DNA of 64,000 nt from an uncultured bacterium (GTDB taxonomy: Bacteria > Hydrothermota > UBA3072): NCBI GenBank assembly GCA_964525555.1, contig CAZGHN010000013.1:1144-65143 (forward strand). Reading direction: 5' to 3'. A program made the position numbers and the translations under genes. The notes beneath the pieces were generated by a model. That model worked only from the letters and a program-made list of their open reading frames with translations, did not search any database and had not been told where the DNA came from. Shown in pieces: positions 9,237 through 17,129 of the stretch. How positions within the stretch are numbered: the stretch's first letter is position 1; the number at the start of each line of letters is the position of its first letter.

Positions 9237-9848
9237 TTGAAACAGACTGAAAAAATAGGTAAAAAATTAAGAAAATTTAGAAAAAATAAGGGTTGGACTC
9301 TTAAAAAAATGGCCGGCGAACTGGGGCTTCACTGGACTACAATCCAAGCGTGGGAAAAAGGCAAATATGGAATACCTTCTACGAAAGTTGATAAAGTTTG
9401 CAAGGTTCTAGGAATATCTCCAAGTCTTTTATTCGAAGAAAAACCTGATAAAATAGCCTATCCTTTTGTTGAAGGTATATTCCCCGATGCAGCTGTATTG
9501 GCGCATAGAAATATCAGTAAAAATATTAACATAAAGGAAATCCTTCCAAGTGGTGCCGACTTCTTGATTATAAAAGTTGAAAGCGACAGTATGAAAAATG
9601 CGGGGATATTAAAAGGAGACTGGGCTTTAGTAGATACTTCAATTATAGATCCTCACATAAAAAACATATATGCCATCGCGATTTTTTACGAAAAAGAAAA
9701 CAAAGGGGAAATAACCTTAAAAAAAGTCGAAAAAGTAGGAAGTACAGTAATATTAATACCTTCAAATATCGAGTACGACATTCAAGTTTATCATAAATCC
9801 GAAATCAAAATTATCGGAAAAGTAGTAAGAGTACTTCGAGCCCTTTAA
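9237..9848 (+). CDS. LexA/CI-like repressor (XRE HTH + S24 peptidase domain)
   Basis: N-terminal HTH (LRKFRKNKGWTLKKMAGELGLHWTTIQAWEKG); C-terminal domain with SDSM (catalytic Ser) and a downstream Lys (…ITLKKVEK…) typical of the S24 Ser-Lys dyad. Confidence 0.65.
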   Translation: MKQTEKIGKKLRKFRKNKGWTLKKMAGELGLHWTTIQAWEKGKYGIPSTKVDKVCKVLGISPSLLFEEKPDKIAYPFVEGIFPDAAVLAHRNISKNINIKEILPSGADFLIIKVESDSMKNAGILKGDWALVDTSIIDPHIKNIYAIAIFYEKENKGEITLKKVEKVGSTVILIPSNIEYDIQVYHKSEIKIIGKVVRVLRAL

Positions 9849-9962: not shown

Positions 9963-11003
9963 TTAATTAATTGTTTCCTTAAGATTCAAAAACTTCAATG
10001 TTAAAATACCGCCAACGATGACAACTAAATGATAAGTGATAAACCGCCATAAAATTGTAAACATACCCACAAGATAATGCGGTACAGAAGATGAAAATAA
10101 AACCGCGAAGCCGCCTTCAACTATACCTTCTCCACCCGGTGTGGGGAAAAAGAAAGAGGCAAAGAGTACAAAAACTTGCCTGAATATTGTATCAATATAA
10201 GAAACTTCTATTGAGAGACCTTTTAGTATAAAATAGGCTATAGAGTAATTTGGTATATAAACAATAATGGTTGTAATAAGAATAGCTAAAGAATATAATT
10301 TTTTTTTCTTAAAAAACTCGAATAATTTATTTCTGCTTACTTTTACTTCTCTCAAAAAAAGGAATGTTCTCCTTGTTCCCCTGGTTTTTTCCCCTTTTCT
10401 AAAGGTAAGAGAATAAATTAGCCTTTTTAGGTATTTAGGCATAGAGAGAATCAGGAAAAGTAAACTAAAAAGAAAAAGGTAAGCAAATATAAAATATCGA
10501 GATAATATTTGCATTGACTTTCCCGAGTACTCCGCTGTAAAAAATGGTAATATAAAAGGAAGAAAAACTATCATGCCCGAAAGATAGAAAAGACCTCTGA
10601 GTAAGAGCAGAAGCAATGTATCGCTGATTTTTAATCCAGCCTTATAAAGTACGTAAACCTGTAGGGGTGAACCCCCTGCTTGAAAGGGGGTGACTGCTGA
10701 AAGGAAAGCTCCGCAGAATATAACCTGGGAGCATCGTCCGAAGGCTATCCATTTTCCGGTGAGCGCTTTGGCAATAAGCCTTATCCTGAAAGATTCAAAG
10801 GTAATATATAAAGAAAGTGAAATAAAAACGATCGGTAAATAAAGGATGTCTATTTTTTTAAATGCCTGCCATGTTTCCTTAGTTGCGGTAAAAGCCATGA
10901 GCAATGTATAAGTTATTATTGAGAGAGCTAGAAATATTTTCAGCCCTTTTATTATCGAAGCTCTGGATATTCTACTTTTTTCTGAGTAAGATTGATGGGT
11001 CAT
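9963..11003 (-). CDS. polytopic membrane protein (flippase-like / LPG-synthase-TM-like family)
   Basis: At least 8 predicted TM helices; resembles the UPF0104/lysylphosphatidylglycerol-synthase TM-region family; overlaps the upstream pcrB-like gene by 32 nt (operon coupling). Confidence 0.4.
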   Translation of the reverse strand: MTHQSYSEKSRISRASIIKGLKIFLALSIITYTLLMAFTATKETWQAFKKIDILYLPIVFISLSLYITFESFRIRLIAKALTGKWIAFGRCSQVIFCGAFLSAVTPFQAGGSPLQVYVLYKAGLKISDTLLLLLLRGLFYLSGMIVFLPFILPFFTAEYSGKSMQILSRYFIFAYLFLFSLLFLILSMPKYLKRLIYSLTFRKGEKTRGTRRTFLFLREVKVSRNKLFEFFKKKKLYSLAILITTIIVYIPNYSIAYFILKGLSIEVSYIDTIFRQVFVLFASFFFPTPGGEGIVEGGFAVLFSSSVPHYLVGMFTILWRFITYHLVVIVGGILTLKFLNLKETIN

Positions 11004-11691
11004 TCTCTAACGCATTTCCTACTACTACAATATCCGCGCCTGCATTGTGTTTGCTTTCTACTTCCTTCCTGTTTTTTATTCCTCCGCCAACTATAAGAGG
11101 AATGTCTATTGTTGATTTAACCTTTTTTATAATTTCTTCTTTGACGGAAAATCTTGCACCACTTCCGCATTCCAGATATACCATCTTAATGCCGAGAAGC
11201 TGTGCAGCATATGCGGTGTTTATTATCTGCTCTACATTGTCCTGAAGGATGGGTTTTGTTCCTGAAACAAATTCAACTGTGGTTTTCCTCCCTCCATCAA
11301 TTAGAATATAACCAGTAGGGATAACTTCTAAGTCTATACCCTTAAGAATTGGTGCTGCTTTAATTTGTTCTTCTATTAAGTAACGAGGATTTCTTCCGCT
11401 TAGTAGAGAAAGAAAAAGTATTGCATCTGCCGCCGAACTAATCTGCTCGGCAGATCCGGGAAAAATAATAACAGGTTCTGAAGATAAATTTTTTACTCTC
11501 TGGGTAAACATTTCGAAGTTGTTGTTCCAGGTTGTGCTTCCCCCGACTAAGATAAAATCAATTTCACTTTCCTCAATTAACTTAATTTTTTTTTCGAGTC
11601 CTTCAAAGTCCTCGGTGTCAGGATCAAGAAGAGCCGCCATCATTTTCTCGTTGTTTTCTTTTTTGGAAAGTATTTTTCGATAAACACTCAT
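10972..11691 (-). CDS. pcrB: (hepta/geranylgeranyl)glyceryl phosphate synthase family protein (PcrB/GGGPS)
   Basis: TIM-barrel prenyl-glyceryl-phosphate synthase hallmarks: …IDFILVGGS…, …VYLECGSGA…, …PLIVGGGIK…ADIVVVGN; the ATG overlaps the alaS stop (ATGA). Confidence 0.75.
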   Translation of the reverse strand: MSVYRKILSKKENNEKMMAALLDPDTEDFEGLEKKIKLIEESEIDFILVGGSTTWNNNFEMFTQRVKNLSSEPVIIFPGSAEQISSAADAILFLSLLSGRNPRYLIEEQIKAAPILKGIDLEVIPTGYILIDGGRKTTVEFVSGTKPILQDNVEQIINTAYAAQLLGIKMVYLECGSGARFSVKEEIIKKVKSTIDIPLIVGGGIKNRKEVESKHNAGADIVVVGNALENDPSILLRKK

Positions 11692-14240
11692 TTAAGTTCT
11701 TTTTTCAGGATTTCGGGAAATCTTTTTAGCATTTCCGGGATTTTGGAAACCTCACTCCCCCCACCTTCTGCCCTTTCTCGGCTCCCACCCCCTCCGCCGT
11801 TAACTATTTTGCATGCTTTTTTGATTAATTCGCCGGCATTTAGTTTTTCTTTTAAGTCTTTACCGACAAATAAGACTACGAAAGCCGAAGTATCGATTTT
11901 ACTAACAAGAAGACCTGCTCCCTGGGGCATAAGTTCTCTTGCCTTTTCGGAAATTTTTCTCAAAGATTCTCTGCTTACGTCAATCTGAGCTGCGACATAA
12001 GCATATTTTCCAATTTTAGAAGTATTTTTCATTAATTCATTAAAACGTACTTCGGCTGCTTGATTATCCATTTTCTCTATTTTTTTCTTTTGTTCCTTAA
12101 GCAAGGACATAGTCTTTTCAATTCTTATTGGAAGGCTTTTTCTGTCGGTATCAAGAAGAAATTCCATCTCTTGTATCAGATTTTCCGCCTCTCTCATCCA
12201 TTTATATGTTGAAACTCCAGTAATGCCCTCAATTCTTCTGACTCCGGACGCTATTCCGGTCTCGGAAGTGATTTTAAAAAGTCCGGCTTCGATTGTATTC
12301 TTAAGATGCGTTCCTCCACATAACTCTTTTGAGAAATCATCAACAGAAATCATGCGAACCGTATCTCCGTATTCTTCTGTAAAAAGAGCGACTGCTCCTT
12401 TCTTTACTGCCTCTTCGTAAGGAATAACTTCCGTTTTAACTTCCATACCTTTAGCAATAGCCTTATTAACTTCTTCTTCTATCGATTCTATTTCCTCTGT
12501 TTCCAAAGGCTTCGGGTGAGTAAAATCAAAACGGAAATGATCGGGAACAACTAATGATCCTTCTTGTTTTACCCAGTCCCCAAGAACTTCCTTTAAAACT
12601 TTATGTAGCAAGTGAGTAGTAGTATGGTTTTTTCTTATTGCGTTTCTTCTTTCCGCATTTATTCTTGCGTTTACTTCTGAAACCGCGAACTCTCCTTTGA
12701 GTTTTCCTGTATGCACATTACCAAGTTTTGAAGGTATTGTGTTTTCTACTTTTAACTCCCACCCTTCACCTTTTATTACTCCAGTATCACCAACCTGTCC
12801 ACCTTGTTCTGCGTAGAAAGGAGTTTCGCTTAAAACAACCTCGAAATCTGCGGCATTCTTTCTAAAAGCTAAAATTTCGGTTACCGATTCTTCTGTATCG
12901 TAACCGATAAATTTCGATACAGCGTTTTTTACAATTTCCCACTCTATTTTGTCATCAGTTTCAAAATCGTGTTTTTGACGTGCTCTATCCTTCTGCTTTT
13001 CCATTTCCTTTTCAAAACCTTTCTCATCGACAGAAAGCTCTTCTTCTTCTGCTATTTCCTTGGTCAAGGTAACAGGAAAACCATAGGTGTCATACAGTTT
13101 AAAGGCTTGCGCTCCGTCTATAATTGAAATTTTCTTTTTCTTGCAATCATCTATAACTTCATTTAATATGGAAATACCGGCGGTGAGTGTGCTGATAAAG
13201 TTTTCTTCTTCCGCTTTAATGATAAGCGTGCTTTGTTCAATCTTTTCAGAAAGGTAGGGGTAGCGATTTTTCATTATCGAAGTAGCTGAAGGGACAAGTC
13301 TGTTCAATATTGGTTCGTCTATTCCTATCCTTCTTGCCGAAGTTAAAGCACGACGGACCAGTCTTCTAAGTACATATCCTCTTCCTGTATTACTTGGATA
13401 CACTCCTTCGCTTATTGCGAAAACGAGAGCCCGGATGTGATCGGCAATAATGTTATGATTTTTTTCGTTTCCTTTATATTCTACGCCGGTAAGTCCTTCG
13501 ATTTTCTGGATTATGGGAAAGAAAAGATCTGTTTCAAATATAGAAGCCTTCTGTTGCATTACCATTGCGAGGCGCTCTAATCCCATTCCTGTATCGACAC
13601 CTTTATTTTTGAGCGGCTTTCTACCTTCTTCAGTGTGATCGTATTGTGGAAAAACATGATTCCACAATTCTATATATCTATCACATTCTCCATCAAACTT
13701 ACAATCCCCAAACTTTTCCTCCATATCATAGAAAATCTCTGTATCGGGACCACAGGGCCCTCTACCTCCGGCAGGCCCCCAGAAATTATCATCCCGTCTA
13801 ATTATCTTTTTTTCAGGAACGCTGATTTTGTCTTTCCATATATTATAGGCCTCATCGTCTTCAGTATAAACTGATATATAAAGTTTTTCCTCAGGAATTC
13901 CGAGGACTTTCGTTAAGAATTCCCACCCCCAGGTAATAGTTTCCTCTTTAAAATAATCCCCAAACGAGAAATTCCCAAGCATTTCAAAAAATGTATCATG
14001 CCAGAAAGTTTTACCTACTTCAGTCAAATCAGAAAGTCTAAGACATTTCTGAACAGAAGTTGCTCTTTTAAATTCAAGGGGTATCTCGCCGGACCATAAT
14101 GGCTTAAATTGAACCATACCTGCAGAAGTGAAGAGTATTGTTTTATCGCTGGGAACAAGCGGCGATGAATCAACTATTTTATGCTCTTTTTCTTTGAAAA
14201 AATTAAGAAATTCTTCCGTTAATTTATCTGAATTCCACAT
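11688..14240 (-). CDS. alaS: alanine--tRNA ligase
   Basis: 850 aa; class II core, HTTTHLLH editing-domain motif, CGGTH zinc motif, C-terminal DHHA1-like GGGGS region. Confidence 0.95.
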   Translation of the reverse strand: MWNSDKLTEEFLNFFKEKEHKIVDSSPLVPSDKTILFTSAGMVQFKPLWSGEIPLEFKRATSVQKCLRLSDLTEVGKTFWHDTFFEMLGNFSFGDYFKEETITWGWEFLTKVLGIPEEKLYISVYTEDDEAYNIWKDKISVPEKKIIRRDDNFWGPAGGRGPCGPDTEIFYDMEEKFGDCKFDGECDRYIELWNHVFPQYDHTEEGRKPLKNKGVDTGMGLERLAMVMQQKASIFETDLFFPIIQKIEGLTGVEYKGNEKNHNIIADHIRALVFAISEGVYPSNTGRGYVLRRLVRRALTSARRIGIDEPILNRLVPSATSIMKNRYPYLSEKIEQSTLIIKAEEENFISTLTAGISILNEVIDDCKKKKISIIDGAQAFKLYDTYGFPVTLTKEIAEEEELSVDEKGFEKEMEKQKDRARQKHDFETDDKIEWEIVKNAVSKFIGYDTEESVTEILAFRKNAADFEVVLSETPFYAEQGGQVGDTGVIKGEGWELKVENTIPSKLGNVHTGKLKGEFAVSEVNARINAERRNAIRKNHTTTHLLHKVLKEVLGDWVKQEGSLVVPDHFRFDFTHPKPLETEEIESIEEEVNKAIAKGMEVKTEVIPYEEAVKKGAVALFTEEYGDTVRMISVDDFSKELCGGTHLKNTIEAGLFKITSETGIASGVRRIEGITGVSTYKWMREAENLIQEMEFLLDTDRKSLPIRIEKTMSLLKEQKKKIEKMDNQAAEVRFNELMKNTSKIGKYAYVAAQIDVSRESLRKISEKARELMPQGAGLLVSKIDTSAFVVLFVGKDLKEKLNAGELIKKACKIVNGGGGGSRERAEGGGSEVSKIPEMLKRFPEILKKELK

Positions 14241-14606
14241 AGCTCATAATAATAAAGTCTATATTATTGTCAAGTTTGAAGAATTAGTAAATCTAAAAGT
14301 AACATTAGTATAAATCCGTAAATTTTCTCCCGCTGTAATCGAATTTCATTTTTTTTAAATCTTCTCCATATCATAATATTCTAATTATAATTTTTTCTTT
14401 CTTTTCCACACAGTTATCATTATATTTTATTGTAATAGTTACCGAAAAATCTTTAAGCTGTCAAGCTTTAAACAACCAAAATCTCAAATTTCTTAAATGT
14501 AGAAATTTTAATGACTTTTACCAATCAACGAACTAACAAATTTGCTAATATACTCAATTCTATCTGCAACTTACTTCCGACTTTTTATCCCTTAAATATT
14601 ATCTCT

Positions 14607-14688: not shown

Positions 14689-15720
14689 ATGAAAAAGAAA
14701 GAGTACTTAAATAAAGAAATAAAACACATAGATATAAAAAGCTTTAATTCTATACCAATTATCGAACAGTTCGAGAAAACAGCTTTCCAGGCAAGAAACT
14801 TATCACGAGCTGCAAAAATATATGATAAGATGTTATCCGATAAAAACTGCTCTATTATATTATGCCTTGCCGGTTCTCTTTTTAGTGCAGGATTAAAGAA
14901 AATAGTATATGATATGATAAAAAATAATATGATAGATGTTATTGTTTCTACCGGTGCAATTATAGTGGATCAGGACTTTTTTGAAGCACTTGGATTTAAG
15001 CACTTCCAGGGAACACCGCAAAGCGACGATAACGAATTAATGGAAATAATGATCGATAGAATTTACGATACATACATAGATGAGGAACATCTAAGAATAT
15101 GTGATATGACAATAAATGAAATCGCAGACGGCCTTAAACCTGTCCCTTATTCTTCCCGCGAATTTATTAAGTTTATGGGTAAATATCTCAAAGAAAAAGA
15201 CAAAGGTAAAGAATCAGTGGTTCGCATTGCTTACGAAAAAGATCTGCCGATATTCGTACCAGCTTTTTCCGATTCTAGTGCCGGTTTTGGTCTAGTCTAT
15301 CATCAATGGAATCTCAAAGACAAATCTAAAGTATCAATAGACTCCGCTAAAGATTTCCTTGAATTGACTAAAATAAAGGTAAGCGCTAAAGAAACCGGTC
15401 TGGTAATGATTGGTGGAGGAGTCCCTAAAAACTTTGCTCAGGATGTAACTGTGGCTGCCGATATTCTCGGAAAAGAAGTAAATATGCATAAATACGCAAT
15501 ACAGATAACGGTCGCGGATGAAAGAGACGGAGGATTGTCGGGATCGACTTTAAAAGAGGCCCACTCATGGGGAAAAGTTGATGAAGGGTCCGAACAGATG
15601 GTCTTCTCAGAAGCAACTATAGCATTTCCTCTTTTAGCAAGCTATGCCTTTCATAAGGGTAGCTGGAAAAAAAGAAAGGAAAAGAAATTTAATTTTATGT
15701 TAGACAAAAAGGAGACCTGA
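14689..15720 (+). CDS. deoxyhypusine synthase-like protein (probable homospermidine/polyamine aminobutyl transferase)
   Basis: DHS family length and motifs (…STGAIIVDQD…, …MIGGGVPKNF…); operonic with pdaD and speB. Confidence 0.75.
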   Translation: MKKKEYLNKEIKHIDIKSFNSIPIIEQFEKTAFQARNLSRAAKIYDKMLSDKNCSIILCLAGSLFSAGLKKIVYDMIKNNMIDVIVSTGAIIVDQDFFEALGFKHFQGTPQSDDNELMEIMIDRIYDTYIDEEHLRICDMTINEIADGLKPVPYSSREFIKFMGKYLKEKDKGKESVVRIAYEKDLPIFVPAFSDSSAGFGLVYHQWNLKDKSKVSIDSAKDFLELTKIKVSAKETGLVMIGGGVPKNFAQDVTVAADILGKEVNMHKYAIQITVADERDGGLSGSTLKEAHSWGKVDEGSEQMVFSEATIAFPLLASYAFHKGSWKKRKEKKFNFMLDKKET

Positions 15721-15723
15721 CAA

Positions 15724-16266
15724 ATGATACCCAAAAAAGTATTTTTCACTAAAGGAGTCGGTATTCATAAGGATAATCTAGCTTCTTTTGAGCTTGCACT
15801 GAGAAATGCCGGTATTGAAAAATGTAATTTGGTAAATGTTTCAAGTATTTTACCTCCTTATTGTAAAGAAATCAAGAAAGAAAGTGGATTTGCAGAGTTA
15901 AAAGCAGGTGAAATTACTTTCGTAGTAATGGCAAGAAATTCTACTAATGAACCTAATAGGCTTGTATCTGCAGCTATCGGAGTTGCAGTGCCAAAGGAGA
16001 AAAACAATTACGGGTACTTATCAGAACATCATGCTTTTGGAGAGACTGCCAAGAAGAGCGGCGAATATGCTGAGGATCTCGCTGCCACCATGCTTGCATC
16101 AACACTCGGCATACCTTTTGACTCAGACCAGGCATGGGATGAAAGGAAGCAGGTATATAAAGCAAGCGAGCATATATTTAAAACACGTAATATTTGTCAA
16201 TCTGCACAGGGAAATAAAGACGGTTTATGGACTACCGTTATAGCGGCAGCAGTTTTTATAACATAA
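15724..16266 (+). CDS. pdaD: pyruvoyl-dependent arginine decarboxylase
   Basis: About 180 aa; PdaD family with the self-cleavage Ser-Ser site (…[11 protein letters not shown]…). Confidence 0.8.
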
Positions 16267-16271
16267 AGTAA

Positions 16272-17129
16272 ATGTCTGAACCAGTCCCTTATAATTTCGG
16301 AGGGCTTGAAGATAAGTTTTCCAATTATGCGACTGCAAAAACAGTCGTTCTGCCAGTACCTTTTGATAAAACAAGTTCGTGGTTAAGGGGTTCGGACAGA
16401 GGGCCAAAAGCAATTATTGAAGCATCCATGAACTTGGAACTTTACGACCTCGAAACAAATACAGAAGTATATAAAAATGGAATATTTACCTCAAAAGAGA
16501 TTCTATCCGACAGTTCAGAAGAAATGATAGAATCTGTTTATGAGCGAGTCACCGAATTAATAAAAGATAATAAATTCGTTGTAACCCTGGGGGGAGAACA
16601 CACAATTTCCCTCCCCGCAATAAACGCACACCATAATATTTATAAAAAAATGTCTATTCTTCACTTAGACGCACATTCAGATATGAGAGATTCATATCTT
16701 GATAACAAATTAAGCCACGCATGCGTAATGGCGAGAGTGAAAGAAATAAACGAGAATATAATTTCAGTCGGAATAAGGAGCTTTGACTCATCGGAATTAA
16801 ATAATATAAATAAAAACAACACTTTTTTTGCAAAAGATATTTACAATTCTGAAAACTGGATAGAAAAAGCAATAAGCAAACTTGACCAGAATGTTTATAT
16901 ATCAATAGATCTAGATGTCTTCGATCCTTCGGTCATGCCTTCTACAGGTACTCCGGAACCCGGCGGTTTGGATTGGTACACGTTAACCGGTTTTCTTAAA
17001 GAGGTCTGTAAAAATAGGAACTTAATTGGTTTTGATGTTGTAGAACTCTGTCCTGCTGAAACTGTGGCGCCGGATTTCCTAGCGGCTAAATTAATATACA
17101 AATTACTTAGTTATAAATTCTCGTTATAA
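16272..17129 (+). CDS. speB: agmatinase (arginase-family ureohydrolase)
   Basis: Mn-binding motifs GGEHTIS, HLDAHSD, DLDVFDP…STGTPEPGGL. Confidence 0.85.
   Translation: MSEPVPYNFGGLEDKFSNYATAKTVVLPVPFDKTSSWLRGSDRGPKAIIEASMNLELYDLETNTEVYKNGIFTSKEILSDSSEEMIESVYERVTELIKDNKFVVTLGGEHTISLPAINAHHNIYKKMSILHLDAHSDMRDSYLDNKLSHACVMARVKEINENIISVGIRSFDSSELNNINKNNTFFAKDIYNSENWIEKAISKLDQNVYISIDLDVFDPSVMPSTGTPEPGGLDWYTLTGFLKEVCKNRNLIGFDVVELCPAETVAPDFLAAKLIYKLLSYKFSL

Follow-up and report, generated by a model that had tools for sequence, protein, structure and literature searches.

The 64,000-nucleotide stretch of DNA analysed here (the window), which belongs to a bacterium of the candidate division WOR-3, contains three consecutive genes on the minus strand, coding for an alanine--tRNA ligase (alaS), a geranylgeranylglyceryl-phosphate synthase (GGGPS) and a flippase-like polytopic membrane protein. 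The last of these may translocate a lipid derived from the GGGPS product, a reading to which a probability of roughly 40% can be given. According to this proposal, a lineage-specific paralogue of the ordinary flippase-like genes of the phylum would have been recruited downstream of GGGPS in one WOR-3 family, and its product, translated from a start codon that overlaps GGGPS, would move a GGGPS-derived isoprenoid glycerol-phosphate lipid across the inner membrane, from its cytoplasmic leaflet to the outer one. The lipid moved could be geranylgeranylglyceryl phosphate itself, or a diether or head-group-bearing product; the second ether bond would then be provided by a UbiA-family enzyme resembling digeranylgeranylglyceryl-phosphate synthase (DGGGPS), encoded elsewhere in a metG-UbiA-uppP unit, and saturation by reductases of the geranylgeranyl reductase (GGR) family. 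A wider proposal, by which the proteins of the WOR-3 paralogue clade are flippases dedicated to archaeal-type isoprenoid ether lipids in the membrane of a bacterium and form with GGGPS an MprF-like module split into synthase and flippase, is unlikely; if true, it would provide the first candidate transporter for such lipids in any organism and a handle on the assembly of mixed membranes.

GGGPS itself is already known for the Fibrobacteres-Chlorobi-Bacteroidetes (FCB) superphylum. Bacterial GGGPS genes have a central place in the debate on the “lipid divide”, and the use of their products in FCB bacteria is unknown; the crossing of membranes by ether lipids is likewise uncharacterised, archaea included (PMC13691511). 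In the literature searched, no paper links GGGPS with a flippase, and neither Villanueva et al. 2021 (PMC7852524) nor Coleman et al. 2019 (PMC6431249) mentions one. If the link is true, the locus names a candidate transporter for GGGPS-derived lipids; if it is not real, the locus is a known FCB GGGPS inside a housekeeping operon. The conserved, overlapped MprF-type gene provides a concrete test of the link by co-expression in Escherichia coli.

The three-gene unit and its two lipid-related products

The first gene, alaS (11688-14240, minus strand), codes for an alanine--tRNA ligase of 850 amino acids, with 843 bits to TIGR00344 (cut-off 457) and the PF01411, PF07973 and PF02272 domains. It is followed on the same strand by the PcrB/GGGPS-family gene (10972-11691; 239 amino acids; PF01884, 126 bits) and by the gene for the membrane protein (9963-11003; 346 amino acids; PF03706, 126.5 bits). 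A preliminary description of this DNA had presented the three open reading frames (ORFs) as translationally coupled, and reading of the sequence confirmed their coordinates, their strand and both overlaps: an ATGA at 11688-11691, where the alaS stop TGA runs into the GGGPS start ATG, and 32 nt at 10972-11003, where the flippase-like gene begins inside the 3′-end of GGGPS. The flippase-like ORF has its first ATG 32 nt ahead of the TAG that ends GGGPS; the next possible start (ATG, GTG or TTG) comes no earlier than residue 36, and the Pfam match already begins at residue 25. An overlap of 26-32 nt between these two genes recurs across genera, and thus it is not a chance artefact of ORF calling.

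The best promoter-like site for the three genes, TTGACA-16-TATTAT (11/12 matches, a consensus match only), is located just 5′ of the alaS start (14246-14273, minus strand) and is the sole strong sigma-70-like site serving its strand. No site of equal quality was found ahead of GGGPS or of the flippase-like gene, nor was a terminator-like site found between the three genes. Because of these features and of the overlaps, the simplest reading of the sequence is that alaS, GGGPS and the flippase-like gene would form a single transcription unit; no RNA sequencing runs containing the locus were found, only DNA runs of sediment metagenomes.

The TIM-barrel, PcrB/GGGPS identity put forward for the middle gene was borne out by curated models: the product exceeds the cut-offs of NF003198 (270.4 bits, cut-off 247), TIGR01769 (176.5 bits, cut-off 161.55) and PF01884 (cut-off 23.9). 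It scores only 44 bits, far under the cut-off of 260, with NF003197, the model for the Bacillus heptaprenylglyceryl-phosphate (HepGP) synthase, and also falls short of the group I archaeal models. The best relative of solved structure is the Flavobacterium johnsoniae GGGPS (4JEJ; 216 bits, aligned residues 2-232), which shares the PF01884 family and the NF003198 subfamily, although the two proteins are only about 50% identical. The archaeal group II structures 6jo3, 4mm1 and 6nke follow with 131-134 bits, then the Bacillus PcrB structures with 42 bits and the Archaeoglobus fulgidus group I enzyme 2f6u with 22 bits. Bacillus subtilis PcrB (heptaprenylglyceryl-phosphate synthase; 1VIZ, 3VZX) has in common with the window protein the Pfam family and the TIM-barrel chemistry, but it belongs to group I. 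The ranking of hidden Markov model and PDB-sequence scores assigns the middle gene to the group II, bacterial FCB-type GGGPS and not to the Bacillus-type HepGP synthases.

The motifs D-P-D, F-P-G, Y-L-E-x-G-S-G and V-G-G-G-I of the F. johnsoniae-type enzymes are kept across WOR-3 and Bacteroidota homologues. In 12 of these homologues the invariant positions are D23-P24, F77-P78-G79, Y172, G176-S177-G178, G202-G203-G204-I205 and G225, which we take to be the catalytic and phosphate-binding sites of the family. By analogy with its relatives, from which chain length and stereochemistry are taken, the protein would be a soluble TIM-barrel enzyme that ether-links the C20 prenyl chain of geranylgeranyl diphosphate (GGPP) to glycerol phosphate. 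In a group of Bacteroidales-type metagenome proteins (P0173-P0211), GGGPS is fused to a 4′-phosphopantetheinyl transferase (PF01648, ACPS) or to a cytidine/tRNA-deaminase-type domain (PF00383), which are housekeeping enzymes without an obvious related function.

The designation of the membrane protein as flippase-like held as well, and no unrelated transporter family emerged. The match with PF03706 (LPG_synthase_TM; cut-off 33.4) covers profile positions 3-302 of 302, and the TIGR00374 “flippase-like domain” is matched with 105.1 bits (cut-off 43.2). The AlphaFold2 model, built with 21 homologues, has a pLDDT of 81.8 and a pTM of 0.82; its six top Foldseek matches in the PDB are all MprF (probability 1.00, TMq 0.50-0.57), and the next ones have a TM score of about 0.25 or less. 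The PDB gave no match when searched by sequence or by profile, so that MprF was reached by the fold search alone; the identity with the MprF transmembrane domain (7DUW, 6LVF, 7F47, 9GOE) is 11-15%. On the basis of the model and of PF03706, which MprF shares, the last gene product belongs to the MprF transmembrane (UPF0104) family as a stand-alone protein; in MprF this domain is the half that translocates lipids, and for the last gene product lipid translocation is predicted.

Distribution of the pair among WOR-3 genomes

The nearest named homologues of both the GGGPS and the flippase-like protein are from the candidate division WOR-3, and a protein with a sorting tail of the type IX secretion system type is encoded near the locus. 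The host is a candidate division WOR-3 bacterium, and these two features, together with the sediment origin of the DNA, fit an FCB-related organism. Its own genome (G000) has 47 contigs, 2.82 Mb in total, and a completeness of 94%. It was compared with a survey of 151 genomes of the phylum (families labelled f1, f2 and so on, the window belonging to f1; genomes labelled G, loci L); GGGPS was found in 99 of them.

All the 13 same-genus genomes that have GGGPS also carry the flippase-like gene next to it, as do L012, three other genera of family f1 (G018, G082 and G062; overlaps of 26-29 nt, 58-62% protein identity) and nine of ten metagenomic orthologues. The contig of G031 ends 5 nt past GGGPS, so that this genome is uninformative on the pairing. 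An ATGA-type overlap of alaS and GGGPS is also present in L012 and G082, while in G018 and G062 a gap of about 250-280 nt is found instead.

In the phylogenetic tree, the GGGPS-linked flippase-like proteins form one clade (SH-aLRT 100) with a stem of 0.67 changes per site, sister to a phylum-wide paralogue clade, flipP1; the window protein is by this placement a member of a WOR-3-specific paralogue clade. The long-stem clade is confined to GGGPS-bearing lineages. Fixed differences from flipP1 include E292 (T in flipP1), inside a conserved PTPG-x-E-G loop, and also R275 and H325; these clade-specific residues are compatible with a changed substrate, without proving it.

The gene order has a precedent in gpgSDF of Pseudomonas aeruginosa and hexSDF of Clostridioides difficile, where genes for lipid synthesis are followed by a gene for a stand-alone UPF0104 predicted flippase (PMC12713373). 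Common to these systems and to the window are one or more genes for cytoplasmic lipid synthesis and, after them in a predicted operon, a COG0392/UPF0104 protein of ~330 amino acids; however, the enzymes upstream of GpgF/HexF are a glycosyltransferase/deacetylase pair, whereas the one in the window is an ether-lipid prenyltransferase, and the window protein is well under the cut-off of the GpgF equivalog model NF053789 (62.8 vs 320 bits). A functional link between GGGPS and the flippase-like protein is plausible in view of this precedent, of the overlapping start retained in four genera, of the restriction of the clade to GGGPS-bearing lineages and of its long stem.

Several findings weigh against this link. 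The pairing has a narrow range: no WOR-3 family other than f1 showed it (20 loci), and 79 GGGPS loci, nearly all from Bacteroidota, have neither an adjacent flippase-like gene nor an adjacent alaS, the only case of some proximity among them being a PF03706-like ORF 2.3 kb from GGGPS in L033. One genus that keeps alaS-GGGPS has lost the membrane protein: in G057, a stretch of 40 residues right after GGGPS (L096:6867-6986), which shares 65% identity with residues 9-48 of the flippase-like protein and abuts a convergent PD-(D/E)XK nuclease gene, is apparently what is left of the 5′ part of a deleted flippase-like gene. Thus, GGGPS does not need the flippase-like gene. In G004 (family f2) the orthologue is unlinked, being located between SbcCD-like and HD-domain genes, and no GGGPS-PF03706 fusion was found among the longer homologues. 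As for the precedent, the flippase activity of GpgF is unverified (PMC12713373). The production of ether lipids by these bacteria is unproven too. We know of no member of the stand-alone UPF0104 group with biochemically proven flippase activity. A further point is the routine location of GGGPS in housekeeping operons, described below, which makes adjacency alone weak evidence for function. The preliminary description had proposed the membrane protein as a candidate partner of GGGPS; of this proposal, the overlap kept in four genera stands in favour, and the confinement to one family, the loss in G057, the unlinked orthologue and the lack of fusions stand against. The complex prediction for the two proteins lent no support (score 0.00, mark 0.32) and was counted neither for nor against.

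It is about equally probable that the two genes are neighbours with no shared function, the paralogue having landed behind GGGPS in the ancestor of one family and acting on another envelope lipid, such as a glycolipid, a modified phosphatidylglycerol or a polyprenyl-phosphate-linked sugar, as its paralogues may do. The loss in G057 and the unlinked gene of G004 agree with this, as does the presence of PF03706 proteins in WOR-3 families whose searched genomes yielded no GGGPS (f7, 8/15; f26, 4/5; f30, 3/3; f21, 3/5). Moreover, 70 more distant PF03706 loci all lack a GGGPS gene within 4 kb, and the own genome contains two further PF03706 paralogues, with 40% and 32% identity to the flippase-like protein, in a housekeeping context. 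Against this reading stand the overlapping start, retained by four genera with protein identities as low as 58% and by nine of ten metagenomic orthologues, and the long-stem clade, found only in lineages that have GGGPS.

The two paralogues are a tandem pair with overlapping ends, outside the window, between polA and panC (G000:C6:12564-14571; L092:6564-8571). The tandem pair recurs in many WOR-3 families, including ones where GGGPS was not found.

The linkage of alaS with GGGPS spans families f1, f2, f3, f6 and f8, and it is wider and older than the presence of the flippase-like gene. In families f2, f3 and f8 the arrangement is alaS-GGR-GGGPS, and gltX is found upstream in one genome; the family of the window has lost GGR from this site. 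With alaS or gltX upstream, and with the DGGGPS-like UbiA likewise placed behind metG, GGGPS has the behaviour of a constitutively expressed member of housekeeping operons. The preliminary description had included alaS in the coupling; since the alaS-GGGPS linkage predates the arrival of the flippase-like gene, this coupling has no functional meaning for the latter.

The same observations bear on the idea of a split MprF, in which Ala-tRNA formed by the adjacent enzyme would be used to synthesize and flip alanyl-phosphatidylglycerol, GGGPS being a bystander. Aminoacyl-tRNA is a substrate of MprF (PMC12713373), alaS belongs to the unit and the fold agrees with that of the MprF transmembrane domain. 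However, unlike MprF, the window protein has no aminoacyl-phosphatidylglycerol synthase domain, fused or separate: no PF09924 match was found in the own genome, which is 94% complete, while the same search matched 7 of 14 control genomes. The flippase-like protein is therefore not a split MprF, and the idea, which the older and wider alaS-GGGPS linkage also contradicts, was rejected as close to refuted.

The GGR proteins of the alaS-GGR-GGGPS loci (L097, L098, L099, L100 and L106, families f2, f3 and f8) have 385-391 amino acids (TIGR02032, 189 bits; GGR_cat domain), and their genes have overlapping ends with the alaS and GGGPS neighbours. In family f2, genes of the RmlA-like, GmhA-like (SIS) and GHMP-kinase types come after GGGPS.

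Other candidate genes for ether-lipid synthesis

The preliminary description had suggested a search of the genome for the glycerol-1-phosphate dehydrogenase (G1PDH) as well as for a UbiA-family DGGGPS. Of the two, the dehydrogenase (EgsA/AraM) was not found in the own genome, the best score with NF002022 being 31.6 bits against a cut-off of 413; a UbiA with DGGGPS models on top was found, under their cut-offs. A Bacillus-type placement of GGGPS combined with the lack of G1PDH had been named as unfavourable to archaeal-like lipids: the lack of G1PDH was observed, but GGGPS is not of the Bacillus type (44 vs 260 bits with NF003197). Matches to PF13685 were rejected as G1PDH, since they are iron-containing alcohol dehydrogenases and AroKB. 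The CDP-archaeol synthase CarS was not found in the own genome either; the sole PF01864 match (about 22 bits) was discarded as a bacterial CdsA-like protein (NF008635, 105 bits).

Five UbiA homologues are encoded in the own genome. For the one at G000:C10:13197-14048 the top models are those of DGGGPS, both under cut-off (NF009521, 166 bits vs 296; NF009523, 152 vs 269). In the phylum, the search for a DGGGPS-like UbiA identified 61 genomes, and GGGPS is present in 56 of these; this co-occurrence is supportive and, because the genomes are related, it is given without a statistical test. The cut-off of the GGR family (TIGR02032, 158.8) is passed by two proteins, encoded on contigs C1 (196 bits) and C5 (162 bits), and a protein on contig C19 is a short-chain prenyl synthase of the farnesyl diphosphate (FPP)/GGPP type, with 282 bits to the FPP synthase subfamily model NF045485 (cut-off 275) and a GGPP-synthase score under cut-off. 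The remaining parts of a plausible pathway are present, a point in favour of translocation of a GGGPS-derived lipid by the flippase-like protein.

The ether-lipid gene pattern of the own genome is one already published for FCB phyla, in which GGGPS and DGGGPS orthologues mostly occur without G1PDH; WOR-3 is among the bacterial phyla in the distribution table of Coleman et al. 2019 (PMC6431249). Enzymes of Cloacimonetes yielded diether phospholipids in E. coli, where G1PDH was non-essential (Villanueva et al. 2021, PMC7852524). GGGPS, a DGGGPS-like UbiA and the lack of G1PDH are common to these systems and to the window genome; however, the two synthase genes are co-localised in Cloacimonetes, while here they are on different contigs, behind alaS and metG, respectively.

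These data also bear on an improbable alternative, namely that the GGGPS product is a minor single-chain prenylglycerol derivative and not a bulk lipid, on the model of the Bacillus HepGP, which gets dephosphorylated and acetylated, and that the flippase-like protein exports it or exposes it on the outer face of the inner membrane. Neither G1PDH nor CarS was found, the DGGGPS-like UbiA is unlinked and under every curated cut-off, and group II enzymes of Bacteroidetes make C20 ether lipids whose function there is still unknown (PMC7888582), all of which agree with a minor lipid. This alternative is opposed by the Cloacimonetes enzymes, which made diether phospholipids in E. coli without an essential dedicated G1PDH, and by the DGGGPS-like UbiA, which largely co-occurs with GGGPS in the phylum.

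Both DGGGPS-like UbiA loci examined are outside the window. On contig C10, the gene is part of a metG-UbiA-uppP/BacA unit (G000:C10:12448-16140; L093:6448-10140), in which the UbiA stop overlaps the BacA start; like GGGPS, it is directly 3′ of a gene for an aminoacyl-tRNA synthetase, and next comes a gene for a polyprenyl-diphosphate phosphatase. A second DGGGPS-like UbiA is found on contig C5 (G000:C5:45282-52183; L094:282-7183), in an operon with fabF, a YegS-type lipid kinase, a NAD epimerase/dehydratase and a radical SAM/SPASM protein. This operon also codes for an acyl carrier protein-fused enzyme resembling serine palmitoyltransferase (BioF/Kbl family; NF047600, 290 bits, under cut-off), and its gene content resembles that of a sphingolipid-type cluster to which a prenyltransferase has been added.

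Genes flanking the unit

Convergent with the flippase-like gene is a repressor gene with a LexA-like helix-turn-helix and an S24 peptidase domain (9237-9848, plus strand), for which synteny extends to L012 and to four metagenome contigs (79-86% identity). On the other side, a polyamine operon is divergent from alaS (14689-17129, plus strand); it codes for a deoxyhypusine-synthase-like enzyme, which matches the 1,9-bis(guanidino)-5-aza-nonane synthase model NF002699 above cut-off (579 bits), a pyruvoyl arginine decarboxylase and an agmatinase.

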